Shown: piece by piece, positions 3,387 to 41,170 of the stretch | Position numbering within the stretch: position 1 is the first letter of the stretch | How the letters are laid out: each line of letters opens with the position of its first letter | Sequence record: PV435126.1 | From: Escherichia phage EPFV3-03/2025 | Direction: 5' to 3' (one strand) | Length of the DNA stretch: 64,000 bases | Made by a program: the position numbers and the translations under genes | The notes under the pieces: model-generated | What the model saw: the letters and a program-made list of their open reading frames with translations, nothing else | Told to the model about the DNA's origin: nothing | Database searches by the model: none

Positions 3387-3426
3387 TCACCCATTCGAAA
3401 GAAAACGAACACAGGAGTACTTAATC

Positions 3427-4601: not shown

Positions 4602-4613
4602 GGAGGCCTACCA

Positions 4614-5227: not shown

Positions 5228-5229
5228 TA

Positions 5230-5610: not shown

Positions 5611-5654
5611 TGGGTAGGGATGGCGGCAAGGATGCTGCTTAAGGAGCAGTAGAG

Positions 5655-7108: not shown

Positions 7109-7117
7109 GGAGGTTGT

Positions 7118-7498: not shown

Positions 7499-7511
7499 TT
7501 TCTAAGACCAC

Positions 7512-7538
7512 CCCCGCTTCGGCGGGGATTTTCTATTT
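7512..7538 (+). terminator. rho-independent terminator
   Basis: GC stem CCCCGC/GCGGGG with UUCG-type tetraloop, then ATTTTCTATTT. Confidence 0.7.
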
Positions 7539-7547
7539 GGAGTTATT

Positions 7548-8048: not shown

Positions 8049-10027
8049 TTGTAAACAGTAATGAAACTAAAGCAGTGCTAACTGGGAATTTGGAGGTCAC
8101 AAGGGGATCAATTTCTCTGAACAAAGAGACTTTTGGGTTAATCATTAAAGGGATTTATGAAGATAAGGTGCTGGCAAGCTGCCGTGAACCAATCTTCAAT
8201 GCTGTAGACTCCCATGTTGAGTCTGGACGTGGTGATGTTCCGATCATCATTCACTCCCCTACAGATCTTGAACCATACTTCTTTGTGCAGGACGTTGGCC
8301 TCGGTATGTCAGAAGAGATGGTCCGCAACACTTTCATGAACCTCGGTGAGTCAACCAAGCGCAACAGCAACGCTCTGGTAGGCAATAAAGGTGTTGGTTC
8401 AAAGGCCCCGTTCAGCATGGTGGACACTTTCGATGTAATCAGTGTGCACAATGGTGTGGAAAGCACATATCTATTGTTCTTGGATCAGGGTATCCCAAAT
8501 GTCACCAAGATCCGTGAGCGGAAGACTGAAGAGCACAACGGGGTAAAAGTTCAGTTTCATGTTAAGAAAGAGCATGTTCTGAAATATCGCACTGCTATTG
8601 CATCATGTCTGCGCTATGCAAAATTTCCGTTCACTGTCACCGATCCGATGACGAGCAAGATGCTGGAGGGAGACAAAGTAGAGGCGCAGTATTATTATGA
8701 AAAAGATGGTTGGAAGATGACCATCCTGAAGGGCTATACCAGCTCTGACGAGAGTCGTGTGGTAATGGGTCACCAACCTTACCGTTCTAAGTTCCTGGAA
8801 ACACTAACAGATTATCCTGCAATTTGTGTAGAGATCCCTATCGGAGATTGCAATATTAACCCAGGGCGTGAGTGGACCATAGAAGGTCACGACGATGGTG
8901 GATTCCAAGATCGTTTGGAAGCTTTTGTCAAAGAAGGCATTCGCCTTCGTGGAGCAGAAGTTGTTGCAGAACTGGAGACAGCAAAAACATCCTCAGAAGC
9001 ACGCGAGATGATGAAGAACAGTGGAGTGTTCGGGCACATTTTCGGCAAGAATTTTATGTATGACCGCTGGGAAGAAACAGGGTTAGGGAGTTTGGGGGAC
9101 TGCGAGATCTTCGCTGGCGGCTTAAATAAAGGCCGCATAGGTTACGCCTGCTACGGAAAGGTAGAATTCTTACGGGGAGTTTATTTAGTATTTAACGACG
9201 GAGACGGCAAATATAACCGGAATAAGTGTAACTACTTAAGCGAGATCACCGGACGCAACGTTTTCTATTGCCGGAACACGGATCTGGTAAAAGAGTTTAA
9301 AGAGGCGGCACACCATCCGTTCTTTGCAGATACGGTCAAATTGTTATCAGAGCTCCCTCGCCGACCTGTGAAGAAAGGTGAAACAAAAACTCGTTATGAG
9401 CCCGGTTATTGGGTTAAAAAACTTGAGAAGGATGGTTACTTCCGTCGTGAGCGTATTACCAAGGCAGAGTTCAGGAAGATTAAGCACTGCATACCATATG
9501 AGGGGGATATCCAACGTGGAAGTTGTTGGCTAGGTCAGATGAGTAACATCTACCAGCAAAATTATGACCGTGTGCGTGCGGCACTCCAGATCCCTGAAGG
9601 GGAAGATCTATACCTGGTATCGGAATCTCGTCTGCTTTGGACTGATCCTGATTGCCAGTATGTTACAGAGAAGAATGTGGAACATTTGTTGAAAGAGGAT
9701 GCTTGGAAATTCTTACTGACTCGCGCAGCAAATGAAACTTCATATGACAGCCTGTATAGACAGTTGGGAAAAATTATCCCTATGCAAGATTTTGGAAATT
9801 ATAAGCCACATTTCCACAAGTGGGAAGGTAACACCACGTGGAAGTACGGTGAGCTGAATCATCGTGCCAAAATCTTAATCGCCAACCGGGTTAAGTGCGG
9901 GAAGGCATATATTGCGAGACTGGAAAAGAAATATCCACTTTTGAAGCATGTAGGCTTGAAATATTGGGACACTCCTGCTATGATTGAATACCGTGAACTG
10001 ATTGATACAAAGAATAACATCAAATAA
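8045..10027 (+). CDS. Hsp90-like GHKL ATPase domain protein (660 aa)
   Basis: Bergerat-fold motifs FNAVDSHVE (N box), DVGLGMSEEMV (G1), NLGESTKRNS, GNKGVGSKAPFS (G2); C-terminal about 500 aa unassigned. Confidence 0.6.
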   Translation: MIVNSNETKAVLTGNLEVTRGSISLNKETFGLIIKGIYEDKVLASCREPIFNAVDSHVESGRGDVPIIIHSPTDLEPYFFVQDVGLGMSEEMVRNTFMNLGESTKRNSNALVGNKGVGSKAPFSMVDTFDVISVHNGVESTYLLFLDQGIPNVTKIRERKTEEHNGVKVQFHVKKEHVLKYRTAIASCLRYAKFPFTVTDPMTSKMLEGDKVEAQYYYEKDGWKMTILKGYTSSDESRVVMGHQPYRSKFLETLTDYPAICVEIPIGDCNINPGREWTIEGHDDGGFQDRLEAFVKEGIRLRGAEVVAELETAKTSSEAREMMKNSGVFGHIFGKNFMYDRWEETGLGSLGDCEIFAGGLNKGRIGYACYGKVEFLRGVYLVFNDGDGKYNRNKCNYLSEITGRNVFYCRNTDLVKEFKEAAHHPFFADTVKLLSELPRRPVKKGETKTRYEPGYWVKKLEKDGYFRRERITKAEFRKIKHCIPYEGDIQRGSCWLGQMSNIYQQNYDRVRAALQIPEGEDLYLVSESRLLWTDPDCQYVTEKNVEHLLKEDAWKFLLTRAANETSYDSLYRQLGKIIPMQDFGNYKPHFHKWEGNTTWKYGELNHRAKILIANRVKCGKAYIARLEKKYPLLKHVGLKYWDTPAMIEYRELIDTKNNIK

Positions 10028-28805: not shown

Positions 28806-29131
28806 CAGAGATCATCATTTCAACTGCAGGATATGTATTCCTGACAATCATTGCGCTGATCATCTTGGTGGTGGTGTATGGATTTGTTATCCTGCCTATT
28901 CTTGAGACATTTAGTTTGTGTCGGTGTTGGAGAAAGGCTTACGGACCACAGCCGTGGAGAGACTGGCCCCACCTGTTACGCATAGCGTTCTCTTATGCCT
29001 ATGATCACTCCAGTAGTGCATGCATAACCGGGTATCACGCCCACAACTGGAACTGGGAAGGGCTGGGGAGATGGAGTGTTATAAAAACTATACCTCTACG
29101 CATGTACAAGCCTAAAAACAAAGATAGTTGA
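28802..29131 (+). CDS. hypothetical membrane protein (109 aa)
   Basis: N-terminal hydrophobic stretch YVFLTIIALIILVVVYGFVILPIL. Confidence 0.45.
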   Translation: MTEIIISTAGYVFLTIIALIILVVVYGFVILPILETFSLCRCWRKAYGPQPWRDWPHLLRIAFSYAYDHSSSACITGYHAHNWNWEGLGRWSVIKTIPLRMYKPKNKDS

Positions 29132-29134
29132 TAC

Positions 29135-29431
29135 TTGAAAATCCCTGGCACATCAAGTATAAGGGGGATTTCTAAAATGGATTTCCTCCTTTTGATATTT
29201 TACCTAGCCGGATATTTTAAAATTCCTAGAAAATCAGAAAATGGATCGAAAACTAAAATGGATTTTTTCAAGACAGGCACGATAAGCTGCGCTGCTCATT
29301 CTATCATTCGCACCGTACTCCAAATCACCGTTCCAGATTTTCCGCACACACTCTCGCCCTTCTACCAGAACTTTCCCAACTTACCTTCGGCCTTTTATGA
29401 CAATAAGTTAATTATTATCAGTAAGTTTTGA
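29135..29431 (+). CDS. hypothetical protein (98 aa), doubtful
   Basis: ORF-track ORF with non-ATG start; low-complexity; adjacent to repeat region. Confidence 0.25.
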   Translation: MKIPGTSSIRGISKMDFLLLIFYLAGYFKIPRKSENGSKTKMDFFKTGTISCAAHSIIRTVLQITVPDFPHTLSPFYQNFPNLPSAFYDNKLIIISKF

Positions 29432-29444
29432 TACATCTCTCTCA

Positions 29445-29625
29445 GTACTCGATCTGTTTTTCATTTCAAAGATTGGATTTTCTGAAAAATTTTCTCGATA
29501 AATTTTTCGGTACTCGATCTGTTTTTCGTTTTCTGAATCAGATTTTCTGGAAATCGTTCCGGCGCTCGACCTGAAATTTTTGGGGACGAAATCGATTTTT
29601 CGTTTTCAGAAACGGATTTTTAAAA
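29445..29625. repeat. AT-rich degenerate tandem repeats (about 65-bp unit, 3-4 copies)
   Basis: Units beginning gtactcgatctgtttttc at 29445 and 29510, degenerate copies near 29565 and 29590. Confidence 0.6.
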
Positions 29626-29734
29626 TTTCTATATGGGAATATTTTAGGAGGTATTATTTTATATAGAATTGTCACGGTAGGTAATTAGCATGCTAACTAA
29701 ATTTATGAAATGCGAAAAGTTCTCATTTAGAATT

Positions 29735-29753
29735 TTGAATGATAATCATTCTC
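29735..29753. promoter_or_regulatory. Fur-box-like site 1
   Basis: ttgaatgataatcattctc matches 15/19 of Fur consensus GATAATGATAATCATTATC. Confidence 0.3.
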
Positions 29754-29985
29754 GTTTGCAGAATAACGGGCACCCCCGGTGATTGTCTCCCGGCCCCTAC
29801 TGCCCCGGCTTGTTATTATAGTATCACACAGGACAAAGAAAGCAAGAAGTTTTTGCATAAATTTTTAGACGATAATGATAATCGTTCTCATTTCATGCAG
29901 CGCCCATCCCCGGTGGTTGTCTCCCCCGTCACCGGTGCCTGCCGTCCTTTCGATATGTATATTGTGCCACCTGGCGGGGCCGCTG
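29738..29985. repeat. two copies of an about 110-bp direct repeat (29738-29845 and 29871-29985)
   Basis: Each copy: gataatc(a/g)ttctc..gcag..ccccggtg(a/g)ttgtctccc..tat(t)at..ac. Confidence 0.6.
29871..29889. promoter_or_regulatory. Fur-box-like site 2
   Basis: gataatgataatcgttctc matches 17/19 of Fur consensus; overlaps a possible -10 downstream of TTGCAT 29854-29859. Confidence 0.35.
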
Positions 29986-30102
29986 TCAACACTTTTCAAA
30001 AAAAAAAATTCTAACCTGATGCGCTAACCGCTGCAACCTGGCGGGGCCAGCCTGGTGGGCCTACGCTATAGGATAGGCAACAATTGAAGAGGAGGTACAA
30101 AA

Positions 30103-30279
30103 ATGAAAGGTAATAGGATCCCCCTGGAAAATGTAGCTATTAATAACGCTGAGGCTATCGCCCTGGTTGAAAAGGCTATGGCGGGAGCGTTGGAACATAA
30201 AGAAGAGTACGAAAAAATGATGGTCAACCTAGCAGGGGCGGCGGCTGGAGAATTCTACCCAAAAAATAATTTTAACTAG
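30103..30279 (+). CDS. hypothetical small protein (58 aa)
   Basis: ORF below track cutoff; GAAGAGGAGG upstream of ATG 30103. Confidence 0.4.
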   Translation: MKGNRIPLENVAINNAEAIALVEKAMAGALEHKEEYEKMMVNLAGAAAGEFYPKNNFN

Positions 30280-30282
30280 TGG

Positions 30283-30311
30283 TTGACAGCTCGGACAGTT
30301 TTTGTTATTCT
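30283..30311 (+). promoter_or_regulatory. sigma70-type promoter
   Basis: -35 TTGACA 30283-30288, 17-bp spacer, -10 TATTCT 30306-30311. Confidence 0.45.
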
Positions 30312-30364
30312 TATCCTCGCAAGGTGAACAACACCACACTAATCAACAGAGAGGATAAAAAATC

Positions 30365-30562
30365 ATGAACGCCTACGGAATTAAAGTACGTCGCAGCACT
30401 CGCCAGGTGGTCACCGATCAAATGATTTGCCAGGTGGATGTGACCATCAACAACGGGCAAGGCCTTTATAAATTCCGTCGCGGTCAGAGCTATACCCGGC
30501 AACAGCTTAATCGTTGCGCCCTGACAAAAGGCCAGATCAACCACTGGTTTAATAAAAAATAA
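30365..30562 (+). CDS. hypothetical protein (65 aa)
   Basis: ORF with conserved leader agaggataaaaaatcATG. Confidence 0.5.
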   Translation: MNAYGIKVRRSTRQVVTDQMICQVDVTINNGQGLYKFRRGQSYTRQQLNRCALTKGQINHWFNKK

Positions 30563-30565
30563 GTA

Positions 30566-30594
30566 TTGACATATAGGCCGACACCAAATACACT
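30566..30594 (+). promoter_or_regulatory. sigma70-type promoter
   Basis: -35 TTGACA 30566-30571, 17-bp spacer, -10 TACACT 30589-30594. Confidence 0.45.
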
Positions 30595-30626
30595 AAAAGC
30601 ACAAAAGACACTGAGAGGATAAAATC

Positions 30627-31025
30627 ATGAAAACCACCACCTTTAATTTTGATAATGCGGACTTTTCTTTTTCTGATGTCAATAACTGCCGCCGTGATCG
30701 TGGATTTTACAAGGCCTATAATCTGGTGGGCCTGGATGATGACAATAATTTGCACGAAGTAGCTGAGATCCGGTATTATGCCGCCGCCAGCGGGAACACT
30801 CATTACTGCGTTTTTTGGATACACGACAACAAGAACAATAAGTACGGCTATACTGGCGGCAAGGCGAGCGGACACGGTTATGATAAAGCCAACGCAGCAC
30901 TTGAGAGCGCATTAAATGCTATGGGGATCACTGCCGACGGCTGGATCTACGAAGAAGAGTTTTTGTCGGCACTTGCTGACCGCCTGGGCTATAAAAAGCA
31001 CATTGTGACATGTGCCCACGAATAA
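30627..31025 (+). CDS. hypothetical protein (132 aa)
   Basis: ORF with conserved leader gagaggataaaatcATG. Confidence 0.5.
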   Translation: MKTTTFNFDNADFSFSDVNNCRRDRGFYKAYNLVGLDDDNNLHEVAEIRYYAAASGNTHYCVFWIHDNKNNKYGYTGGKASGHGYDKANAALESALNAMGITADGWIYEEEFLSALADRLGYKKHIVTCAHE

Positions 31026-31031
31026 AAATCA

Positions 31032-31059
31032 TTGACACGCTGCAAAATTCAAGTAAACT
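31032..31059 (+). promoter_or_regulatory. possible sigma70-type promoter
   Basis: -35 TTGACA 31032-31037; -10-like TAAACT 31054-31059; followed by leader hairpin ggcggga..tcccgcc. Confidence 0.35.
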
Positions 31060-31107
31060 AGGCACAAAAGGCGGGAATGTCTCCCGCCAACATAAAGGAA
31101 AAAGATC

Positions 31108-31512
31108 ATGAATAAGAACGTACGCCGCATCATGAACGAGCTGGCAAACGATGAAAAAATTATTGACATGCATTTGATCAACATTTGCCGCCGTTGTGTA
31201 ACATACAACAACCGCGCCGCAAAAGCGCGTGAGATGAACGCAAAAGGCACCTTAAAGCCATTTCAGGTGGTGGTAAAGGCCATTAAAGATGTAACTAATA
31301 CGGCAAACCAGGCACAGGAGAACACCAACGAGAGTACCAATATTGATCCGGCTTACATCATGAAACGGATCCGGATCTGTAAGAATAAAGAGCAGATATA
31401 TAACGTCATAGATTGGTTGGATTCTATGGGCGACGTGGTGTACAACAGGTTTTCTGCAGCTATTGAGATCCAGCTTGACAGGTTGGACGGGAAAGTACTG
31501 AAAACTTATTAA
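31108..31512 (+). CDS. hypothetical protein (134 aa)
   Basis: ORF in small-gene array. Confidence 0.5.
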   Translation: MNKNVRRIMNELANDEKIIDMHLINICRRCVTYNNRAAKAREMNAKGTLKPFQVVVKAIKDVTNTANQAQENTNESTNIDPAYIMKRIRICKNKEQIYNVIDWLDSMGDVVYNRFSAAIEIQLDRLDGKVLKTY

Positions 31513-31513
31513 G

Positions 31514-31559
31514 TTTATTTTTAGATGGCCTTGACTCCAGGGCCATCAATAAAGTAAAC
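31514..31559 (+). repeat. promoter-embedded palindromic repeat, copy 1
   Basis: tttatttttaGATGGCCttgactccagGGCCATCaataaagtaaac; 7-bp inverted repeat flanking TTGACT. Confidence 0.6.
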
Positions 31560-31592
31560 TAGTCTCAACTAAGCGAAAAAGGGGGCTTTAAG

Positions 31593-31712
31593 ATGAGCAC
31601 TACACGCCCATACACAAAGGTAACTATTATCGTTTGCGTTGTCGGTTACATCCTGGCGCAAATGTTAATGAGTAGCGCCAACAGTTTTGCAAAATTTTTC
31701 TTAAATTTTTAA
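31593..31712 (+). CDS. hypothetical small hydrophobic peptide (39 aa)
   Basis: ATG 31593 after AAGGGGG; TIIVCVVGYILAQMLM hydrophobic core; below track cutoff. Confidence 0.35.
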   Translation: MSTTRPYTKVTIIVCVVGYILAQMLMSSANSFAKFFLNF

Positions 31713-31740
31713 TTGACAAGCTAACCCAAATCAGTATACT
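31713..31740 (+). promoter_or_regulatory. sigma70-type promoter
   Basis: -35 TTGACA 31713-31718, 16-bp spacer, -10 TATACT 31735-31740. Confidence 0.55.
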
Positions 31741-31795
31741 TAAACACGTAAACGGGAAAACTTCCCAAAACACAAAAAAAAAAGGAGAAAACACC

Positions 31796-32137
31796 ATGAC
31801 TACTATGACCGCCGCAGAAAAAGCTATGCAGATCGCCGCGCTGAAAAAACAGATCGCAGACCTTGAGAACAAGATCGATAACTTTGAAATCGACGAGGAC
31901 AAGTACGACGAAAACTATGATGACTGGTTAGACGAGATCTACGGCGAAATTATGATCGGTAACATTTCTTTTCTTCCGTCGCGTATCCTCAAGGAGTTAG
32001 ATCCTATCGCTTACCGCTGCGGATTTAGCGACTACATCGACAGCTTGGATATTGAGGACGATGAAGAATATCAAGAATTGCAGGCAGAGCTGGAAGAAGT
32101 GAAAGAGGAGCTTTCAGAGCTGGAAGAAAACGAGTAA
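31796..32137 (+). CDS. hypothetical highly acidic protein (113 aa)
   Basis: Asp/Glu-rich throughout with coiled-coil-like heptads. Confidence 0.5.
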   Translation: MTTMTAAEKAMQIAALKKQIADLENKIDNFEIDEDKYDENYDDWLDEIYGEIMIGNISFLPSRILKELDPIAYRCGFSDYIDSLDIEDDEEYQELQAELEEVKEELSELEENE

Positions 32138-32139
32138 AA

Positions 32140-32185
32140 TTTATTTTTAGATGGCCTTGACTCTAGGGCCATCAATAAAGTAAAC
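32140..32185 (+). repeat. promoter-embedded palindromic repeat, copy 2
   Basis: tttatttttaGATGGCCttgactctagGGCCATCaataaagtaaac; upstream of ORF 32226. Confidence 0.6.
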
Positions 32186-32225
32186 TTTACACTGTTAACA
32201 CTGAACTGATGAGGAGTTAAAACCC

Positions 32226-32471
32226 ATGGCAGCACTAATCACAAAATATTATGCGCCCACCAACACCAAAAGCGCCCGTATCATGGTAAAAGGCTTCGGA
32301 CGTAAAAAGGTTTACGCCTGGGACTATTCCCTAGATATGGAAGACAATTATACCAACGTAATGACCGATTTTATTAATGATCTGAATAAACAGATCTTAA
32401 CCGACTACAAAGTGACCGATATTGCTTACATAGGTGAAGGCGGGATCTGTTTTGTAGGCATTGTGAAATAG
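32226..32471 (+). CDS. hypothetical protein (81 aa)
   Basis: ORF preceded by GAGGAG. Confidence 0.5.
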   Translation: MAALITKYYAPTNTKSARIMVKGFGRKKVYAWDYSLDMEDNYTNVMTDFINDLNKQILTDYKVTDIAYIGEGGICFVGIVK

Positions 32472-32472
32472 T

Positions 32473-32520
32473 TATTTTTTCGGTGGTCCTGGTTGCAGGG
32501 CCATCTATAAAGATAATTTA
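32473..32520 (+). repeat. promoter-embedded palindromic repeat, degenerate copy
   Basis: ttattttttcggtggtcctggttgcagGGCCATCtataaagataattta; upstream of ORF 32548. Confidence 0.4.
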
Positions 32521-32547
32521 TTAACACCATGAAAGGAGAAAGTACAC

Positions 32548-32901
32548 ATGATTAGCGGGGCTAGTTTTATTATTGGCGCTATTGCTACGGCTTTAATTGT
32601 AAACAAGATCCAGGATAAAAAGGAAAGAGGAAGTACCGCCCTTGCAGAATATCCATTTTGGACATTTAACGATAACGAAGATTATATTATAAAGTATAAA
32701 AATAAAGAAGGCGACCAAGTAACACCGCGACCGATCCCGGCTTACAAAATGCAGGAAACACTATACCGCTTGGAGGCGGGGGGCGCAAAAATTGTTGACT
32801 TTTGGGGATACGACCACACAGATCAGGAAGTTATAAAGCGCCGTATCCGGGCTATTCAGGCCAATATTGAGGTTAACAAGGGGGGAATATATGAAAATTA
32901 A
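32548..32901 (+). CDS. hypothetical protein with N-terminal hydrophobic segment (117 aa)
   Basis: MISGASFIIGAIATALIV hydrophobic N-terminus. Confidence 0.5.
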   Translation: MISGASFIIGAIATALIVNKIQDKKERGSTALAEYPFWTFNDNEDYIIKYKNKEGDQVTPRPIPAYKMQETLYRLEAGGAKIVDFWGYDHTDQEVIKRRIRAIQANIEVNKGGIYEN

Positions 32902-33088
32902 TTTCGAGAAAATTGTAAAGCGCCCTCATGATTCCGAAGAGTTGCCAGAACGCCGACAGCGCAACAATAAACTGAATAGGCCAAAAAGGTTTGGGAAGAT
33001 CTGGCGGAATCATTATGATCGTAAATTGCCCGGCCTACTTTTGGAACGTGAACGACAGGCAGAACGATACCGCCATAAAGACAAATAA
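32891..33088 (+). CDS. hypothetical basic protein (65 aa)
   Basis: Start at ATG 32891 after GGGGG; Arg/Lys-rich; followed by terminator. Confidence 0.4.
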   Translation: MKINFEKIVKRPHDSEELPERRQRNNKLNRPKRFGKIWRNHYDRKLPGLLLERERQAERYRHKDK

Positions 33089-33096
33089 CAACCAAC

Positions 33097-33126
33097 GCCC
33101 CGCCATTGTGCGGGGCTTTTTATTTC
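33097..33126 (+). terminator. rho-independent terminator
   Basis: GCCCCGC-cattgt-GCGGGGC stem-loop followed by TTTTTATTT. Confidence 0.75.
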
Positions 33127-33247
33127 TATCCTACGAATAGCGCCCCTGGTTGGCCCTGTAAGCGCCAAAAAGGCCCCCACCTATGCAATCGCCCCCCTTT
33201 AACCTGAAAGCATCGCCTAGGGCCGTTTTATAGCGTTAAAAATATCA

Positions 33248-33275
33248 TTGACATCGTCAACAGGTTAGCTATAAT
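33248..33275 (+). promoter_or_regulatory. sigma70-type promoter (consensus)
   Basis: -35 TTGACA 33248-33253, 16-bp spacer, -10 TATAAT 33270-33275. Confidence 0.6.
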
Positions 33276-33307
33276 AACCACATCAAAGAGAGAAAGGAGT
33301 AAACGCC

Positions 33308-33568
33308 ATGCGTAAATTAAAAAATTTTGATAAAGTTGATGTTATCCTGAATAATTTTTACTACTGCAACAACAAGGCTATTTGGTGGCGTGATAGTTCC
33401 ACCGATAAAGTCAGGGCGCGCTTTCTCCAAGGTCACTGGCAAGGCCGCCCAGTGATTAAAATCATGGGGCAATTGGTAGCGTTTAAAAATTGCCGCCGTG
33501 TTGATGACGTTGAAGAGATTTTAAACATTTTGCGCCACAATAATTTAAAAAATAGTGTTGACAAGTAA
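33308..33568 (+). CDS. hypothetical protein (86 aa)
   Basis: ORF downstream of consensus promoter. Confidence 0.5.
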   Translation: MRKLKNFDKVDVILNNFYYCNNKAIWWRDSSTDKVRARFLQGHWQGRPVIKIMGQLVAFKNCRRVDDVEEILNILRHNNLKNSVDK

Positions 33569-33585
33569 ATCTCAATAAGTATAAT
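33558..33585 (+). promoter_or_regulatory. sigma70-type promoter (consensus)
   Basis: -35 TTGACA 33558-33563, 16-bp spacer, -10 TATAAT 33580-33585; followed by leader hairpin ggcgggaaaacttcccgcc. Confidence 0.6.
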
Positions 33586-33642
33586 TAAACACACAGGCGG
33601 GAAAACTTCCCGCCACTAACAAAGAAAACAGGAGAAAATATC

Positions 33643-34266
33643 ATGACCACCGTTAACATTACCACAGGTTACAATTTACCTTTCGACGTGCTGACCGACG
33701 AACAAAAAGAAAAAGCCATTGAAATGGTACGCGAAAGAGAAGAACACAGCGGGGATAATTTTTTTGCAGAAAGCGTAATTGAACACTATAAAGAATATGT
33801 CTTTCCAGAGTACGGCCTTGAAGATACCGAAGTACATTGGTCCGGCTTTTGGTGTCAAGGCGATGGCGCATCGATCAGTGCTGAAAATGTAGACTTAGAA
33901 AAATTCTTGCGTAAAGTCAAGGCCCTGACCAAGTTCAGATCAATTCGTCACTTGTTCGGCACAATGCACGATGGCGAACTATCCGCCAGTATTGAACGCG
34001 ACAAGTACAGCCATTACAGCCATGAAAACACTGTAAGCGGGTACATTGATACCACATGGCTAGATCTGACCGCTAAACAAGAAAACAAAGTGGAAGACCT
34101 GGAAGAACTGATCACCGAGACGGTACGGGAGCTATCCCGCAAGGTTTACGTAGACCTGGAGCAAGCCTATCTTGAACAATTCACTACCGAAAACCTGATC
34201 GGCCTTATCGAGGCCAATGATTGGCGGTTTGATGTGGATGAATATGGCGAGATGACTTTTTCATAA
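33643..34266 (+). CDS. hypothetical protein (207 aa)
   Basis: ORF downstream of consensus promoter; acidic. Confidence 0.55.
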   Translation: MTTVNITTGYNLPFDVLTDEQKEKAIEMVREREEHSGDNFFAESVIEHYKEYVFPEYGLEDTEVHWSGFWCQGDGASISAENVDLEKFLRKVKALTKFRSIRHLFGTMHDGELSASIERDKYSHYSHENTVSGYIDTTWLDLTAKQENKVEDLEELITETVRELSRKVYVDLEQAYLEQFTTENLIGLIEANDWRFDVDEYGEMTFS

Positions 34267-34274
34267 ATAAAGTG

Positions 34275-34302
34275 TTGCAATAACCTAAAAACCTGCTATA
34301 TT
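34275..34302 (+). promoter_or_regulatory. sigma70-type promoter
   Basis: -35 TTGCAA 34275-34280, 16-bp spacer, -10 TATATT 34297-34302; leader hairpin gggggcaagacgtttgccccc follows. Confidence 0.45.
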
Positions 34303-34356
34303 AAAACTCAAGGGGGCAAGACGTTTGCCCCCACACAAAACAAAGAGGAAAACATC

Positions 34357-34737
34357 ATGAAAAACACTACTAAAGCTATTGACACCGTCATGTTTAACCT
34401 GGTTACCTTTCGCGAGGATATGAAAGATCTTCCACGTGAAACAGTGTGCGATCACATTGAAAACTATCGCAAACTAATCAAAGAGTTGCCTTTAAAACGT
34501 GATCAGTATGCGGCTAATGCCATGCTTAATGCCATGATCAAAAAGATGATCCAGTGTGATTTAACTCTGGCCTATGACTATGCGGGTGGTCGTTTTGCAG
34601 TATACAATCAGCCCGTGCCAGGTATGGGCACCACCGAAGAATTGCACGCGCTCAATCTAAAACAAGACGTGTGGGATAGTATGCCTCGCGTGGTGGTGTG
34701 GGCAGAAAGCGGAAAGATTTACGGCGATAATTTTTAA
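34357..34737 (+). CDS. hypothetical protein (126 aa)
   Basis: ORF followed by intrinsic terminator. Confidence 0.5.
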   Translation: MKNTTKAIDTVMFNLVTFREDMKDLPRETVCDHIENYRKLIKELPLKRDQYAANAMLNAMIKKMIQCDLTLAYDYAGGRFAVYNQPVPGMGTTEELHALNLKQDVWDSMPRVVVWAESGKIYGDNF

Positions 34738-34746
34738 TCAGGTAAC

Positions 34747-34773
34747 AGGCGGCATATTTGCCGCCTTATTGTT
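34747..34773 (+). terminator. rho-independent terminator
   Basis: AGGCGGC-atattt-GCCGCCT stem-loop followed by TATTGTT. Confidence 0.6.
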
Positions 34774-34801
34774 AAACAGAACTGCAAAAGAGGTACATAG
34801 A

Positions 34802-35173
34802 ATGGAATTTATTATTTTGGCTGTATTGGTTGCCTTGTTTAACGCCTGGATCGCTGGCAAGATGGGTAGATCCGCCTTTTTATGGTTTATTATATCTATT
34901 TTCCTGGGGGTGGTTGCAACTATTGTATTGGTTATCCTTGCAATTGTTGACAAGGGGAATAATAGAAAGGGTAAAGTATTTTCAGACCTGTACGACGCTC
35001 AAACGTTTGTCAACGCCTATTATAGTGATCTTCCGGTCTCCTTGCGTTGCAGCCTTGCACAACAAGTTTTCGATGAAGCTAAAACCAGAGATCAAGCCCA
35101 TGAGATATGTTTAACTGAGGCGGATCGCCTATTTGAGAGGAATAGAAAATATGTGGGCCAACCGTTTAAATAA
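34802..35173 (+). CDS. hypothetical membrane protein (123 aa)
   Basis: Start at ATG 34802 (ORF-track start lies in terminator); two hydrophobic helices. Confidence 0.5.
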   Translation: MEFIILAVLVALFNAWIAGKMGRSAFLWFIISIFLGVVATIVLVILAIVDKGNNRKGKVFSDLYDAQTFVNAYYSDLPVSLRCSLAQQVFDEAKTRDQAHEICLTEADRLFERNRKYVGQPFK

Positions 35174-35396
35174 TGCCATGTTAATTAATCCCTTTAGTGA
35201 AGATTTGAAGCCAGCCGCCTGGCGTGACGGATTCAATAACGAACGCTTTATTTTCAGGCCTGATCTTGAGGAATTTTATAACAATGGATCGAACAACAGC
35301 GGAGATAATTTTTCTTGTGATGTGCGTGGTGATGGTACTCCTGGGGGCCATTGTAAACCACGTCACTACTACCAGAAGGGAAGGGGGAGACGATGA
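35151..35396 (+). CDS. hypothetical protein (81 aa)
   Basis: Start at ATG 35151 after GAGAGG; overlaps upstream gene end. Confidence 0.4.
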   Translation: MWANRLNNAMLINPFSEDLKPAAWRDGFNNERFIFRPDLEEFYNNGSNNSGDNFSCDVRGDGTPGGHCKPRHYYQKGRGRR

Positions 35397-35512
35397 CACC
35401 CAAGGATAAGCCCCGCACCGATAAGGTGCGCCGCGTTATGGTATGGCTTGAGATTATCGCCCTTGAAATATTGCTGGGCGTAGGGATGTACTTTATCGCT
35501 GTAAGTAACTAA
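35393..35512 (+). CDS. hypothetical small membrane peptide (39 aa)
   Basis: ATGA overlap with upstream stop; VMVWLEIIALEILLGVGMYFIAV; followed by terminator. Confidence 0.35.
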   Translation: MTPKDKPRTDKVRRVMVWLEIIALEILLGVGMYFIAVSN

Positions 35513-35516
35513 GAAC

Positions 35517-35543
35517 GGCCCCCGATCATGGGGGCCTATCTTT
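35517..35543 (+). terminator. rho-independent terminator
   Basis: GGCCCCC-gatcat-GGGGGCC stem-loop followed by TATCTTT. Confidence 0.65.
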
Positions 35544-35648
35544 AAAAAAAATTCTTCCGGGGTGTTGCAATCCGGTCCGGAATGTGGATAATAACAATCA
35601 ACGGGGAGCTAATCCCCACCACCACAAAAACCAGAAAGGAGAAACAAA

Positions 35649-35849
35649 ATGAGCAACAATATCCGCGTTATTAACTTCAAAAAAGAAGAAAAAATTGCCG
35701 TGCTGATTGACGGTCAAGAAATCTTCAAGGGCGACTATGAAGATCATCAAACGGCGATTAGTATCACTCGCGTAATTGGTTATCATAATTTCTACCCCCA
35801 AGGCGCTGAGGCAGCAGTTAAACGAATCAAAGAGATTGTAGGCCTGTAA
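35649..35849 (+). CDS. hypothetical protein (66 aa)
   Basis: ORF preceded by AAGGAG. Confidence 0.5.
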   Translation: MSNNIRVINFKKEEKIAVLIDGQEIFKGDYEDHQTAISITRVIGYHNFYPQGAEAAVKRIKEIVGL

Positions 35850-35851
35850 AA

Positions 35852-35897
35852 TTTATTTTTAGATGGCCTTGACTTCAGGGCCATCAATAAAGTAAAT
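35852..35897 (+). repeat. promoter-embedded palindromic repeat, copy 3
   Basis: tttatttttaGATGGCCttgacttcagGGCCATCaataaagtaaat; upstream of ORF 35941. Confidence 0.6.
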
Positions 35898-35940
35898 TTA
35901 AACCCTGTTAAAATAATCAGTGCAAAAAGGAGCAATGATC

Positions 35941-36240
35941 ATGTTTATACCCGCCAATAATCTTTATTTCTTTGATGGTCAGATCGTAGACGGCGTGGAA
36001 GTTGAGATCACTGGGTGCCTCGGCGGTCAGGTTATGACTTTTCGGAATAATGCCTTTGATGATTCTCGTATCGTTATGAGAATGGAAGTTACGAAGCTGG
36101 ACGACAAGAAAGTACTTATTGACTATTCTGTGAAAGATCATCCAGACTACCACATGATCTATGGTGATTTGTGCATTGTTGACCGTGACAAAGTGGGCGG
36201 CATTGTGATCGCTATTGTGAACGATGTTTTCTCTGTATAG
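35941..36240 (+). CDS. hypothetical protein (99 aa)
   Basis: Start at ATG 35941, 8 nt after AAGGAG. Confidence 0.5.
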   Translation: MFIPANNLYFFDGQIVDGVEVEITGCLGGQVMTFRNNAFDDSRIVMRMEVTKLDDKKVLIDYSVKDHPDYHMIYGDLCIVDRDKVGGIVIAIVNDVFSV

Positions 36241-36301
36241 TTCCGGCAAATGATGCAAAATAAGGCCCCTAGCAGGGCCTGCAGCGATATAATCACATAA
36301 A

Positions 36302-36332
36302 GGCTATGCGGTTGCATGGCCTTTATTATTTT
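36302..36332 (+). terminator. rho-independent terminator
   Basis: GGCTATGC-ggtt-GCATGGCC stem-loop followed by TTTATTATTTT. Confidence 0.6.
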
Positions 36333-36464
36333 AGCGTTACAGCGGCCCCCAAGGCGCTTAAAAATTCTTTAAAGAAGTACTTGCATCAAGCCCTACAATA
36401 TGGATAATAGGACGTGTCAGGGGGGCGGCCCCAATCATTAACCGGATAGATAGGAGTTAAAACC

Positions 36465-36749
36465 ATGGCTATTGTTACCGCTGGCGATGTAGTAGAAATG
36501 GAAGCAAAATACTTAAAAGCGGGTATGCATATCTTACGGAATGATCAAGAGTTATTATTAACGATGGTCGACTATAATCCCGGCCAGGATTATCCAAGCA
36601 TCGACTACTTTTTTGAGTATGTTGATGAAGAATTAAAAGAGGATGAGGCCTATTGCGGTGAGTTCTGCAATTTCTTTTGTCCTGATGAGGTTGTAAAGGT
36701 TATCTATCAACCTGGCGTAGCTTTCCCGCTGCACGCTATCAATAAATAA
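36465..36749 (+). CDS. hypothetical protein (94 aa)
   Basis: ORF preceded by TAGGAG. Confidence 0.5.
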   Translation: MAIVTAGDVVEMEAKYLKAGMHILRNDQELLLTMVDYNPGQDYPSIDYFFEYVDEELKEDEAYCGEFCNFFCPDEVVKVIYQPGVAFPLHAINK

Positions 36750-36814
36750 ACCTGGCGGGGCCGAAAAGGCCCCTACAGCATAAAATCATAAAAAATAAAG
36801 AGAGGCAAATCATC

Positions 36815-37048
36815 ATGATGGAACAAATTAAACGCGCTGAGGCTATTAATGGCAATGTGATCTATTTTGTCAGCAAAAACGAAAAAGGCGTACCATATGC
36901 GGCGGTAATAGTACAGCCTGACGGAGATTATTGGTTTACTGTATACGGATCTTATTCTTTTGGGCGTCCAGTGCATGATAAAATTTTGAAAGTAGCGAAC
37001 CCCACCGGGAAGAATATCACGGCAGAAAAATTTTTTGAAAAGTGTTGA
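36815..37048 (+). CDS. hypothetical protein (77 aa)
   Basis: ORF with leader aagagaggcaaatcatcATG. Confidence 0.5.
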   Translation: MMEQIKRAEAINGNVIYFVSKNEKGVPYAAVIVQPDGDYWFTVYGSYSFGRPVHDKILKVANPTGKNITAEKFFEKC

Positions 37049-37075
37049 CATGACCATATAAAACTGTAGTATATA
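37045..37075 (+). promoter_or_regulatory. possible sigma70-type promoter
   Basis: -35 TTGACA 37045-37050; -10-like TATATA 37070-37075 with long spacer. Confidence 0.3.
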
Positions 37076-37123
37076 AATCAAAGGGGGCAACAAGCCCCAC
37101 CAACCACAAAGAGGATAAAAATC

Positions 37124-37303
37124 ATGGCTATTATTGCAAAAACTGAGATCGTAGGCTTAGATTCTATTCTCCTCGCATATGAGGAAGCTATAGAAATGTA
37201 TGTGGTTTCCTATGGTGAGTATATCCGTGAATATAAATCTATTGATCTGGCTTTTGAATGTTATATTCGCCAGGTAAATAAAGCATATGATGATTATCGT
37301 TAA
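37124..37303 (+). CDS. hypothetical protein (59 aa)
   Basis: ATG 37124 with leader aaagaggataaaaatcATG; below track cutoff. Confidence 0.45.
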   Translation: MAIIAKTEIVGLDSILLAYEEAIEMYVVSYGEYIREYKSIDLAFECYIRQVNKAYDDYR

Positions 37304-37394
37304 AATAGTTTGGCAACAAACAACCATCTAACAAAGCATAATACATAAGGTGGTAGAATGATCCTCCACCCGGAACAAAGAAGAGGTAAACACC

Positions 37395-37640
37395 ATGAAA
37401 AGCAATAAAGGTTATAACGGTTACAAAAACAAAACTCATTGGAATGTAAGCCTTTGGATTAATAACGATGAGTCATTGTACCGGTTGGCCCAAAGCTTTA
37501 TTAACGCTAATGCTAATCGTAATGATGCGGCGCGGGATATGATGCTTTTTCTGGAGCTAACCGGACAAGATAAGACCCCGGACGGCTTCAAGTACAGCAC
37601 TACGGCGATCCGCGCCGCTATGGTTGGAATGAAACACTAA
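37395..37640 (+). CDS. hypothetical protein (81 aa)
   Basis: ORF with leader agaggtaaacaccATG. Confidence 0.5.
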   Translation: MKSNKGYNGYKNKTHWNVSLWINNDESLYRLAQSFINANANRNDAARDMMLFLELTGQDKTPDGFKYSTTAIRAAMVGMKH

Positions 37641-37824
37641 TAGCCGCCTTACCCTGGGGCCGTGGCAGCGGCCCTATGAATAAGGTTACTAACAGAAGAG
37701 AATAAACACCATGAAACAAAAATTAATTGATGCTGTGATCCTGGTTATTGCCCTGGGTATTGGCCTGATTGCAACCATGGCTAATGTGATCTTGTCTTCC
37801 AACGGTATCGGGTGAGGTTGACAA

Positions 37825-38040
37825 ATGATCACTAACAAAACAGGCAAAACAGAATTTTTACGCAACTTACAGATCGGCAAGCCTGAGATCTGGTACTGCA
37901 CTAAAACACCGCGTGACGAAATGAAAGACTTCACCGCCACGCTGAAGCGGGTAAAGATATCCATTACGCAGAAAAAAGCCTTGATAGTGGTGGAAGGTGA
38001 GATCCCTCAAGCCGTTGTTATAGTTGAGCGTACAGCATAG
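37825..38040 (+). CDS. hypothetical protein (71 aa)
   Basis: ORF in small-gene array. Confidence 0.45.
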   Translation: MITNKTGKTEFLRNLQIGKPEIWYCTKTPRDEMKDFTATLKRVKISITQKKALIVVEGEIPQAVVIVERTA

Positions 38041-38129
38041 TTTAATCTATACCGTACGCCCCATTAACTAACAAAGCATAAACAGGCGGCGGTAACCGCC
38101 TTAAACGCAGCAGAAAGAGGATAGACAAC

Positions 38130-38414
38130 ATGAAAAAGATGATCGCAGTGGTTGCCCTGGTTATTGGACTTAATGCGCCTGTAATGGCTAAAGAGCTGGC
38201 AAAAGAGGTAGATCTAACTGATATCCATGCCGTCAATCAAATCGGTGTTACTTATCGGTTATGCCTTGCCGCAAAAACTTTCCAGGACGGCACAACAGAG
38301 TACTACGGATTCGAAGGCATCCGGTGCGGTGAGCTTGCTCGCGACCTTAAGGAAGATCCAGACCTGGAGGATCTGCCGATAACCGTAAACGGGAAAACTT
38401 ACGTGAACCGTTAA
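38130..38414 (+). CDS. hypothetical secreted protein (94 aa)
   Basis: Signal-peptide-like N-terminus MKKMIAVVALVIGLNAPVMA. Confidence 0.5.
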   Translation: MKKMIAVVALVIGLNAPVMAKELAKEVDLTDIHAVNQIGVTYRLCLAAKTFQDGTTEYYGFEGIRCGELARDLKEDPDLEDLPITVNGKTYVNR

Positions 38415-38416
38415 CC

Positions 38417-38551
38417 ATGAGAAAGATAATTATTACCATGGGGATCGTGGCGGCAATGTTGGCGATCTTTCCCTTTATGGTTAGGTATGTGCTGATCGGT
38501 GTTGTCCTGGTAGTCAGCGATCTGGTGTTATATATTAACTCATTGTTTTAG
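38417..38551 (+). CDS. hypothetical small membrane peptide (44 aa)
   Basis: ATG 38417 immediately after upstream stop; single hydrophobic helix. Confidence 0.35.
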   Translation: MRKIIITMGIVAAMLAIFPFMVRYVLIGVVLVVSDLVLYINSLF

Positions 38552-38559
38552 GTGCGATA

Positions 38560-38751
38560 ATGACAGCAGAAGAAGTTAAAAAAGTACTGGCGGTACTGCG
38601 TTATCATAATCATTGCAAGGTGAAGAATGATCCTGATTATCTTGATTCATCCCTTGAAGAGGATACACTACAAGCCATAAGCAACATGCAAGAATTGCTT
38701 AAGCGTATGACAGAGAAAAACCGACCGGACTATATAGGCGAAAAAGTATAA
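38560..38751 (+). CDS. hypothetical protein (63 aa)
   Basis: ORF in small-gene array. Confidence 0.45.
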   Translation: MTAEEVKKVLAVLRYHNHCKVKNDPDYLDSSLEEDTLQAISNMQELLKRMTEKNRPDYIGEKV

Positions 38752-38880
38752 TCTTTATAAACCATAAAACAGGGCTTGTAATGGTCCTGTTTTTTGTTAT
38801 ACTTGTTTCACGGGTGGCACCTGGCGACGGGGGGAGACAATCACCGGTGGTGCCTGTTATATAAAAAACTATAAAAACCG

Positions 38881-38909
38881 TTGACATCTGCCAGGTGGTG
38901 GGGTAACAT
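38881..38909 (+). promoter_or_regulatory. sigma70-type promoter
   Basis: -35 TTGACA 38881-38886, 17-bp spacer, -10 TAACAT 38904-38909. Confidence 0.45.
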
Positions 38910-38963
38910 TTATCTTGAAGGGGCAAAAGTGCCCACACAACAACCAGAAGAGAGGAAAACGCC

Positions 38964-39236
38964 GTGTCAAGCTGGATTAACCAAGAAGTCGAATCACGTT
39001 TTAATGCTATTTGGGATCTCATCGAAAAAGAGGACGGAACATCAAGCCCCTACCTTAATAATCTTGAATTCCATTTTGTGGAAGCGATGAACGCAGAACA
39101 TGATCACGAAGGCGGCGCGGATGAGTTCGCTAAAGGGTATGGCTTCACCAATGCCAACGAAATGATCGAGGCGGTTGTACTCCAGGCTGAGGAAGATTAT
39201 CAATTAAAAACACTTGAATTTTGCCGCCGTAAGTAA
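38964..39236 (+). CDS. hypothetical protein (90 aa)
   Basis: GTG start after AGAGAGG. Confidence 0.45.
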   Translation: MSSWINQEVESRFNAIWDLIEKEDGTSSPYLNNLEFHFVEAMNAEHDHEGGADEFAKGYGFTNANEMIEAVVLQAEEDYQLKTLEFCRRK

Positions 39237-39297
39237 TAAGATAATGACACGGGCCAAAAGGCCCACCAAACCAGAACCCCATAAAGAGGTAAACATC

Positions 39298-39561
39298 ATG
39301 AAACGTCTTGATCAGCTCAAACTAGTTCAGTACATGGCCTACAAAGTTCTTGAAGTCCAAAAAGGTAGCAAAAAAGAGGTTTGCGAGAAAGCATATAAGA
39401 TCTTTACCCGTAAAAAAGATGATTGGATGTTACGCCAGACCAAAAAGGCTGACATCTTGGGGTACCTGGAAGAAGAGATCCGGCTTGAAGAGCAAGAAGA
39501 GATCCGCCGCAGTGAGGCAGATTATCAGGCAGCTTGGGAAAGCTGGATGAGCAACAAATAA
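39298..39561 (+). CDS. hypothetical protein (87 aa)
   Basis: Start at ATG 39298 with leader aagaggtaaacatcATG. Confidence 0.5.
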   Translation: MKRLDQLKLVQYMAYKVLEVQKGSKKEVCEKAYKIFTRKKDDWMLRQTKKADILGYLEEEIRLEEQEEIRRSEADYQAAWESWMSNK

Positions 39562-39628
39562 TACAACAAGTTACGGTCAGGGGGGGCAATAAAGCCCCTT
39601 GATCACATAAAAATTATGCTATCCCTGG

Positions 39629-39657
39629 TTGACAGGGATCGGCAGTTTTGCTATATT
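39629..39657 (+). promoter_or_regulatory. sigma70-type promoter
   Basis: -35 TTGACA 39629-39634, 17-bp spacer, -10 TATATT 39652-39657. Confidence 0.55.
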
Positions 39658-39706
39658 CTTTTTTGAAGGGAAGTTGTAAGAAAATTAACTAAGAGGTAAA
39701 AACACC

Positions 39707-40126
39707 ATGAACATTAAATCTAATAATCCGGCATATAGCTTTGATAACGCTTTTTGTCACGGTCCGGCGGCGAAAGGATTCGAAATCGATGGTAAACTAA
39801 TTATTGTCAATGTTGACGGGGAAGAGGTTGCAGTATATCCGGTGGCAGACGTTAAAAGCCGTCTACAATGCCGCATGGATGTTACCGCCTATCAGCTTGA
39901 TCCGGTCCGCATAGTTGCCCTGGTCCTGGAAGAAGAAATTAAAGCAATGCACCACAGCAACAAGTTTATTGGTGACGCTCAAGATAATATGAAGGTATGC
40001 CGCCATAAAGTTAATGAAGTGCTTAAAGAATATGGCTTTAAAGATCTGATGATCAAACGTGAGGAAAAATTCCGCTACCGTAACGACCTGGCAAATCGGA
40101 TTTTTGAAATATACGAATCATTATAA
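39707..40126 (+). CDS. hypothetical protein (139 aa)
   Basis: Last gene of plus-strand block; followed by terminator. Confidence 0.55.
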   Translation: MNIKSNNPAYSFDNAFCHGPAAKGFEIDGKLIIVNVDGEEVAVYPVADVKSRLQCRMDVTAYQLDPVRIVALVLEEEIKAMHHSNKFIGDAQDNMKVCRHKVNEVLKEYGFKDLMIKREEKFRYRNDLANRIFEIYESL

Positions 40127-40144
40127 TTTTTTAACTGAATTATC

Positions 40145-40170
40145 AAGGGGCTTAGGCCCCTTTCTTTTTG
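40145..40170 (+). terminator. rho-independent terminator
   Basis: AAGGGG-cttagg-CCCCTT stem-loop followed by TCTTTTTG. Confidence 0.65.
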
Positions 40171-40779
40171 TCTGCTCTTCCCCATACCATAAACGGCCCT
40201 ACCTGACAAGTGGAATAATTGACGAGCCATCAATCCCGCACACTGTACAAATATACATGTAAAATAGCTATTGCATAACCTTTCATTGTGTGGTAGCGGT
40301 GCTATTTTTACCCGTTTTCTCTCCCAAAATTGCACGTAATGCAGCTATTGCACAAAATTTAACCTGATGCACATCTTCAGTATACTGTCAACAATTAAAA
40401 ATCTTTATAAGTCATACACTTACACAAACCAAAAAGCGTGTCCTACGTGAAAAATCGGGTGTAACTATAGCCGACAGATCTCAGAATCCACGTACAATCA
40501 CCATTCTATAGCCTGCAAAGTATTTATTCCAACCACAGAATAACGGAATAGTCAATACTTGTATAAAATAATTATTCGTGTAAACTGCATAACATAAATC
40601 TTCTCATGTGTCAACATTTTTCGTAAACAGTCCGAAATTGTCACGATAGGTTACTATAATCAGAGAAATCTTTAGTCGTCTAATGTTTACTGTACATAAC
40701 TATACTGACTGGAATCATTAGATGACTAAGAGAAAGATAAGAAATAATTAACAATGTAATTGTTTTATCTGCAACAATA

Positions 40780-41170
40780 AGGCAACTATGCAAACGAATG
40801 GCATGGCGCGACGGAGTCGCGACATAATATAAAAGCAGTAACCATCACCCCCGTGATAGTTTGTCTGCAATCTATTAATCAGATCATAGTTGCCTTGTAT
40901 TTAGTTAATCATGACATAACAAGCAGGGCAACTATAGATCTTCTAATAGTTGCCCTGCTTTTATATTATGTCATATATTATTAACTTGTCAATTGTCACC
41001 TTGCTAATTGTTTTCATGCAAACGAATGTCATGGCTTATCATCTCTGTGTAAACTGTCAATGTGTAAACAGTCTACGCAGGAACAATCTATACGTGAACA
41101 GTGAAACATGAAATAATAACAGTCGTTATTGTGTCGAAAGTGTCGTATTGTGTGACATTGTGTCAGACAA
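40780..41170. repeat. iteron/inverted-repeat cluster in non-coding region
   Basis: GGCAACTAT motif 4 times (40782, 40887 rc, 40927, 40946 rc) incl. perfect 15-bp inverted repeat 40921-40935/40946-40960; direct repeats tgcaaacgaatgNcatggc (40790, 41015), gtgtaaacNgtc x2, TTGTGTC x4. Confidence 0.7.

Follow-up and report, generated by a model that had tools for sequence, protein, structure and literature searches.

A run of small early genes, all on the + strand, in Escherichia phage EPFV3-03/2025 (sequence record PV435126.1; the window is the whole stretch of 64,000 nucleotides (nt) that was analysed) carries a repeated element of about 50 nt, and the question raised by this locus is whether the element is read as DNA, by RNA polymerase or a regulatory protein, or acts in the transcript as RNA. 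The original prediction described three near-identical copies and one degenerate copy and interpreted them as operators on promoters. The copies are present where they had been placed, and a covariance model run with its filters off finds exactly four in the window (E-values 1e-14 to 1e-11), termed here E1, E2, Edeg (the diverged copy) and E3 (Table 1). A search for the core 35-mer with up to three mismatches gives three matches, against none in 100 shuffles. We conclude that an RNA helix is the selected feature of the repeat, with which a weak promoter may coexist, and that the family most probably represents two-stem RNA hairpins and not protein-binding operators. With a probability of about 0.5, we propose that the repeat may be a signal for intercistronic processing of the kind found in the early region of phage T7, acting on sense-strand RNA.

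The architecture of the repeat differs from the one first described. The motif GATGGCC+TTGACT+N+GGCCATC has no match in the window even with three mismatches, as TTGACT and GGCCATC are four bases apart rather than one. The core is in fact GATGGCCTTG-ACNN-CAGGGCCATC, in which the inverted repeat spans 10 bp rather than 7 and forms a stem (with one G·T pair) closed by a 4-nt loop. Because TTG lies within this stem and ACN within the loop, the inverted repeat does not bracket the -35-like hexamer. The T-run and the AAAGTAAAC segment had been regarded as independent flanks; they pair with each other and form a second, lower stem of 7-10 bp. Every copy, folded as sense RNA, thus shares an A-U-rich lower stem, a 2x3 internal loop, a G+C-rich 10-bp upper stem and a tetraloop. 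In Edeg, the upper stem is GGUGGUCCUG / CAGGGCCAUC and TTGAC is lacking. The position of the repeat is equally regular, with the 5' edge 0-2 nt from the stop codon of the preceding gene and the 3' edge 33-43 nt before the next start codon in all four copies: E1 begins inside the TAA stop codon of gene 31108-31512, E2 comes after the stop codon of gene 31796-32137, Edeg after the TAG stop of gene 32226-32471, and E3 after the stop codon of gene 35649-35849.

Several lines of evidence place the conserved structure on the sense RNA strand. The copies in the window fold at -23 to -25 kcal/mol (z -5 to -6) as sense RNA, compared with -16.8 kcal/mol (z -2.9) for the antisense fold. In a comparison set of 42 distinct 57-nt versions of the repeat taken from 17 genomes, the sense fold was the better one in 42 of 42 (means of -23.1 and -14.7 kcal/mol). 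Among the 17 core pairs, six pair columns contain non-Watson-Crick oppositions; on the sense strand these are always G·U and never A·C, and it is due to these G·U-only mismatches that the fold is 8 kcal/mol better as sense RNA in every variant. Paired cells make up 95.8% of the alignment at the proposed partners and 34-55% when the partners are slid by 1-3 columns. Two-sided changes occur at four pairs (UA/AU, AU/UA, UA/CG and the series AU-GU-GC). Two of these are adjacent A-U pairs of the lower stem that are swapped between E1-E3 and Edeg; among Edeg alleles, one U-A pair is replaced by C-G and another pair runs through A-U, G·U and G-C. The sole sequence mismatched at both swapped pairs is an E2/Edeg recombinant. 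Both helices were recovered independently by RNAalifold, and the hairpins are retained in a 581-nt context fold. Edeg keeps both stems through compensatory and wobble changes despite the loss of TTGAC, and E1 of a divergent contig, with a 5-nt loop, a 1-nt insert in the internal loop and a 20-nt distance between the equivalent hexamers, retains a fold of -22.6 kcal/mol. Within orthologous sets the 18-nt 'spacer' is invariant, and in lineages that keep the flanking genes the stems are conserved and show no neutral drift.

These observations bear directly on the operator that was originally suggested, in which a dimeric regulator would bind GATGGCC/GGCCATC over the -35 box and co-regulate the downstream genes. 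The inverted repeat does overlap the -35-like hexamer in three near-identical copies. However, a DNA palindrome bound by protein predicts neither asymmetries that are all G·T and confined to one strand, nor pairing that spans about 50 nt and extends into the supposed UP and -10 regions, nor the compensatory changes of Edeg, and the operator is not supported for these reasons. Edeg alters three bases in one half-site only while RNA pairing is always kept, and, judging from the geometry, the half-site centres would lie about 17 bp apart and off helical phase. Moreover, a regulator candidate was not found next to the copies: searches of seven flanking proteins against PHROGs and Pfam gave only unknown functions besides coiled-coil noise, and no recognisable DNA-binding protein. 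We therefore regard an operator, and a gene set co-regulated through it, as very improbable.

The setting of the copies is that of small transcription units. All fall inside apparent two- to four-gene operons, and each is preceded by the first gene or the first two genes of a unit that lies between a near-consensus promoter and a terminator-like hairpin. These units comprise the promoter at 31032 with E1; the promoter at 31713 with E2, Edeg and the terminator at 33097; and the promoter at 35565 with E3 and the terminator at 36297. The promoter at 31032 is likely the source of a transcript that would run through gene 31108-31512 into E1 in a presumed operon. The repeat itself is not an intrinsic terminator, as no U-tract follows the hairpin (the sequence after the upper stem is AAUAAAG), and the earlier doubt about a terminator role is thus borne out. 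A terminator scan lists none of the copies, and the terminator annotations of phages EdH4, Alma and ECML-10 pass over them. Behind most clear early promoters in the region, at about +5 to +30, lies a short G+C-rich hairpin (GGCGGGAAAACTTCCCGCC is one example), and a CA-rich tract and a ribosome-binding site come next; the four copies of the repeat do not have this 5' hairpin. In phage phiWec190 (Phapecoctavirus), the stretch 440-9000 contains at least 10 cassettes of the form TTGACA-N17-TAAGAT-GTATCACGTAGGGCGGCAATGGTGCCGC before small early genes, a stronger form of the promoter-plus-5'-hairpin design, and the hairpin of the E copies is absent there.

It is possible, with clearly less confidence than we place in RNA processing, that the repeat functions chiefly as an early sigma-70 promoter from which each downstream gene would be transcribed separately, the hairpin being secondary or incidental. 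An A/T-rich upstream run, a -35 hexamer TTGACN, an 18-bp spacer and a -10 hexamer TAAAYT would form such a promoter, and this function would be compatible with a role in RNA. The sigma-70-like match noted at the outset is indeed present: it scores 9/12, is correctly oriented, and its -10 hexamer ends 33-43 nt before the start codon. It was also correct that the downstream genes lack a separate promoter, as the gaps holding the four copies contain no other promoter-like site, and neighbouring genes mostly have their own TTGACA promoter at the equivalent relative place. The likely promoter at 31032 also has TAAACT as its -10 hexamer. E1-E3 hardly vary in TTGAC while the sixth base is free (all four nucleotides occur), as in real -35 boxes, and the PhagePromoter annotation in the GenBank record of phage Gotham calls E2 and E3 promoters. 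Against this, 9/12 matches are common by chance (51 sites in a 14-kb region on both strands, against a shuffle mean of 33), an 18-bp spacer and a -10 hexamer matching at 4/6 positions are weak, and an invariant spacer is not a promoter requirement. The supposed UP run and the -10 hexamer covary as one helix, and both Edeg, which has no -35 box, and the divergent E1, with its altered spacing, still keep the hairpin. Furthermore, the copies are without the hairpin that trails the clear promoters of this phage in the 5' untranslated region, and the repeat is absent from the promoters and terminators listed in the rV5 genome paper. An interpretation of the T-run as an UP element and of TAAACT as a -10 hexamer was our own first reading, and it was dropped after folding and covariation showed that the two pair with each other.

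One position of the repeat behaves differently from the rest. Across orthologous copies (15-17 genomes), three to four alleles occur at high frequency at loop position 3 of E1-E3 while the surrounding 45 nt are invariant. This pattern points either to a hairpin loop that is a mutational hotspot or to copies that often exchange sequence.

We return to the proposal that the repeat is processed in the transcript. Host RNA polymerase would start early transcription at the near-consensus promoters and continue through the first gene of each small operon, and from the stop codon of that gene the transcript would fold into the two-stem hairpin of about 50 nt. Host RNase III may then bind the helix, which is about two turns long, and cleave it at or close to the internal loop, so that a 3' hairpin would remain to protect the upstream message and the two cistrons would no longer share one fate. 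If the embedded TTGACN-18-TAAAYT also served as a weak sigma-70 promoter, the 50 nt would constitute a compressed hairpin-plus-promoter cassette.

The proposal draws on a comparison with the five early RNase III sites of T7 (R0.3, R0.5, R1, R1.1 and R1.3), which we folded. Four of them (R0.3, R0.5, R1 and R1.1) have G+C-rich upper stems of 9-10 bp and loops of 4-5 nt, and an asymmetric internal loop with an A-U-rich lower stem is found in R0.3, R0.5 and R1.1, where the loop is 4x5, and in R1 in the centroid fold only. R1.3 is a single 13-bp stem with a 3-nt loop and has neither an internal loop nor a lower stem. The repeat likewise forms a sense-specific helix of about two turns on the transcribed strand (10-bp upper and 7-10-bp lower stems), with an asymmetric 2x3 internal loop in four of four copies; it shares with R0.3, R0.5 and R1.1 the order of upper stem, loop and A-U lower stem as well as an internal loop that is one base longer on the 3' side. 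In both systems, cistrons of early operons, which in the rV5-like phage are apparent ones with presumed host transcription, are separated by a family of sense-strand hairpins about 45-55 nt long; in T7, R0.5 and R1 occupy short gaps following genes 0.4 and 0.7. The two are not homologous in sequence, and the covariance model finds no copy in T7. The phage that carries the repeat is a myovirus unrelated to T7, and the repeat, unlike the T7 sites in the comparison, includes a sigma-70-like -35/-10 match. In T7, the minor E. coli promoter C has its annotated start (T7 position 3113) at the 5' foot of the R1 hairpin (examined stretch 2699-2769), and T7 thus also sets a weak host promoter beside a processing hairpin.

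The determinants of RNase III recognition have been defined by Pertzev and Nicholson in a minimal R1.1 substrate, uR1.1 (PMC1540722). They comprise a distal box (U:A, then U:G), a middle box and a four-pair proximal box, all of which lie at most 11 bp from the cleavage site (PMC1540722). Matching the pairs U12:G27, C13:G26 and A9:U30 of that paper to the T7 sequence assigns the distal box to the second and third base pairs from the tetraloop. In E1-E3, precisely these two pairs are U9:A16 and U8:G17, so that R1.1 and E1-E3 share U:A and U:G at base pairs 2 and 3 from the loop. In the proximal box of E1-E3, position 2 is A:U and position 4 lies within the internal loop, where native R1.1 has it too. 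E. coli RNase III also prefers intergenic regions within transcripts as cut sites (PMC6212723). On the grounds of the T7-like architecture, position and distal box, together with this intergenic preference, we propose T7-like processing that would leave a 3' hairpin on the upstream message. The repeat is best classified as a new addition, restricted to one genus, to a known class, that of intercistronic hairpins for processing or stabilisation, with a behaviour that also resembles that of the early cassettes of T4-like phages discussed below.

Several points count against RNase III processing and keep our estimate from being higher. The internal loop is 2x3 in the repeat and 4x5 in T7; positions 1 and 3 of the proximal box in E1-E3 depart from the uR1.1 optimum (U:A for G:C and G:C for A:U); and Edeg has C:G in the distal box where U:G is preferred, as does T7 R0.5. 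The distal-box bases T8, T9 and G10 are also the TTG of the -35-like hexamer, and their conservation therefore cannot separate processing from promoter activity. The repeat is dispensable in some isolates, being removed by deletions or, in the E1 of phage Gotham, damaged by the loss of five bases of the 3' arm. The covariation reflects few independent events, namely the paralogue split and two Edeg allele types, and shuffle statistics overstate significance because the rows are related; the slid-partner controls and the strand bias are firmer evidence than these statistics. Finally, a literature search found no Vequintavirus transcriptome, RNA-end or RNase III-site data.

A sense-strand hairpin that works without RNase III is a possibility to which we attach a modest weight, lower than that of a promoter. 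The hairpin could be a barrier to 3' exonucleases, a signal at the stop codon that is coupled to translation, or a site for an RNA-binding protein of the phage or the host. Repetitive extragenic palindromic (REP) elements and similar sequences in E. coli operons are repeated imperfect palindromes that lie just past stop codons and act as RNA, as the repeat would; REP and other stabiliser hairpins differ from it in sequence and in the two-stem geometry, and the repeat is phage-specific and present in four copies only. The structural evidence for a sense-strand hairpin applies equally to such roles, a terminating ribosome would melt the lower stem given that the hairpin starts at the stop codon, and the proximal box fits the RNase III rules imperfectly. 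However, a simple exonuclease barrier needs neither a length of two turns nor an asymmetric internal loop nor U:A and U:G pairs in the T7 register, and for an RNA-binding protein PHROGs and Pfam searches gave no candidate among the flanking genes.

It is also conceivable, on a similarly cautious footing, that the 50-nt segment holds two overlapping codes, a working sigma-70 promoter for the downstream gene in the DNA and an RNase III processing hairpin in the read-through RNA, and serves in addition as a boundary at which gene cassettes are lost. The U:A and U:G pairs of the distal box would then be the bases of the -35 TTG, and the -10 hexamer would be the 3' strand of the lower stem. If true, the repeat would be a maximally compressed cassette to 'end one message, start the next'.

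The copies also serve as homology for recombination that deletes the intervening genes, a side effect that is evident from hybrid junctions in five related genomes. Phages phiWec189, ECP26 and ECP32 and one contig from IMG/VR have a single hybrid copy whose left flank comes from E1 and whose right flank comes from E2, and the segment between E1 and E2 is missing. Phage 241Ecol014PP has a hybrid of the left part of E2 and the right part of Edeg, with the crossover within ATAAAG. In this hybrid (examined stretch 2546-2600), TTGACA is joined to GATAAT at a spacing of 17 nt, which raises the sigma-70 match to 11/12, and two pairs of the lower stem are broken. The precise junctions and the loss of the genes between them could suggest that the repeat is a mere recombination or mobility boundary, a cassette end with no role in expression. 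We consider this highly unlikely, as any direct repeat of 46-60 nt would recombine in such a manner and strand-specific pairing and compensatory changes would be left unexplained. A boundary alone would not explain why Edeg, with only short identity to the other copies, is conserved, and predicts neutral drift of the stems where flanking genes are kept, the opposite of what is seen.

In these respects the repeat resembles the promoter-early stem-loop (PeSL) cassettes of T4-like phages (Arbiol 2010; Comeau 2014, PMC4122927). Both are conserved intergenic repeats, about 50 nt long, in a plastic region that holds small early genes; both are found at indel boundaries between close relatives, and both combine a stem-loop with a sigma-70-like promoter sequence, which is near-consensus in PeSL (-35 and -10 about 17 nt apart) and in the repeat is a weak match of putative activity (9/12, 18-nt spacer). 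The PeSL stem-loop lies just upstream of the promoter (PMC4122927), whereas the hairpin of the repeat overlaps the -35 hexamer, the spacer and the -10 hexamer; the -35 hexamer is in the upper stem and loop and the -10 hexamer in the lower stem, unlike in PeSL, and the carrier phage is not T4-like.

The repeat family is confined to E. coli Vequintavirus (rV5-like) phages, the myoviruses to which the window is about 92-95% identical (FV3, ECP2303 and isim, for example). A 61-mer search found the repeat in 120 phage records, all of them Vequintavirus, at about three places per record, and the flanking genes are equally narrow in their spread, the 134- and 66-amino acid (aa) proteins being restricted to Vequintavirus in tblastn searches. 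IMG/VR was scanned with a strict pattern, which hit one contig, and with a loose 16-mer, which gave 67 loci that were then checked with the covariance model. IMG/VR contributes just two rV5-like contigs with real copies (three loci); the loose matches elsewhere held no real copy by the model, and one of them was judged a chance match. Covariance-model searches of the early regions of T7 and of a Phapecoctavirus phage gave zero copies, and Phapecoctavirus, of a related subfamily, employs a different repeated cassette. In Rfam, no family reaches its gathering threshold on any copy (the best is rhtB, with 23 bits against a gathering score of 55), and a scan of 29000-41000 with E-values up to 10 returned only sub-threshold chance matches. 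The 'repeat_region' annotated in phage isim is unrelated to the repeat and falls within a gene.

Two further observations were made alongside this survey. About 17-22 GenBank records of 'Campylobacter phage' (MG0656xx) are 91-95% identical to E. coli rV5-like phages, and the one that we opened, C15, is flagged UNVERIFIED; the host label on these records is probably wrong. Immediately upstream of the early gene run, a T-rich stretch of about 300 nt that has little coding potential includes, at window positions 29435-29620, a direct repeat of about 47 nt (..GGTACTCGATCTGTTTTTCGTTTTC..GATTTT) in three copies, with a spacing of 65-74 nt. These three copies might be iteron-like or regulatory.

Table 1. 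Coordinates of the repeat copies, their parts and associated early-region features in the window
Feature	Position	Strand	Remarks
Copy E1	31511..31561	+	-25 kcal/mol, z -6.3; covariance model 80.6 bits
E1 lower stem	31511-31521 / 31551-31561	+	
E1 internal loop	31522-31523 / 31548-31550	+	
E1 upper stem	31524-31533 / 31538-31547	+	
E1 loop	31534-31537	+	
Copy E2	32137..32187	+	Architecture of E1; -23 kcal/mol; 75.2 bits
E2 upper stem	32150-32159 / 32164-32173	+	Hairpin survives in 581-nt fold
Copy Edeg (diverged)	32469..32519	+	-24 kcal/mol; 66.7 bits; hairpin survives in 581-nt fold
Copy E3	35849..35899	+	-23.6 kcal/mol; 80.1 bits
E3 upper stem	35862-35871 / 35876-35885	+	
Promoter-like match in E1	31531..31560	+	TTGACT, 18 nt, TAAACT; 9/12
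Promoter-like match in E2	32157-32186	+	Position equivalent to that in E1
Promoter-like match in E3	35869-35898	+	Position equivalent to that in E1
Variable loop base	31536, 32162, 35874, with two bases following		Loop position 3 of E1-E3
Segment E1-E2	31561..32136	+	576 nt (copy starts 626 nt apart): 39-aa gene, promoter, 113-aa gene
Segment E2-Edeg	32187..32468	+	81-aa gene; missing from phage 241Ecol014PP
Near-consensus promoter	31032..31059	+	TTGACA-16-TAAACT
Near-consensus promoter	31713..31740	+	TTGACA-16-TATACT; heads apparent operon 31796-33088 (E2 and Edeg)
Terminator-like hairpin and T-run	33097..33125	+	Closes E2/Edeg operon; annotated terminator in EdH4 and Alma
Promoter-plus-5'-hairpin cassettes	31032-31090, 31713-31783, 33558-33628, 34275-34335, 37045-37100, 38881-38940		

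The rV5-like phages are widely isolated and are candidates for therapy and biocontrol, and their early gene expression is known only from promoter and terminator predictions. The repeat provides a warning for such annotation, as a promoter predictor labels it a promoter though its conservation pattern is that of an RNA helix. The copies are also natural deletion points for dispensable early genes, which may be of use in genome engineering. If they are true RNase III sites, early genes that are expressed as processed units would become identifiable, and T7-style processing by a host nuclease would extend to an unrelated family of large myoviruses.

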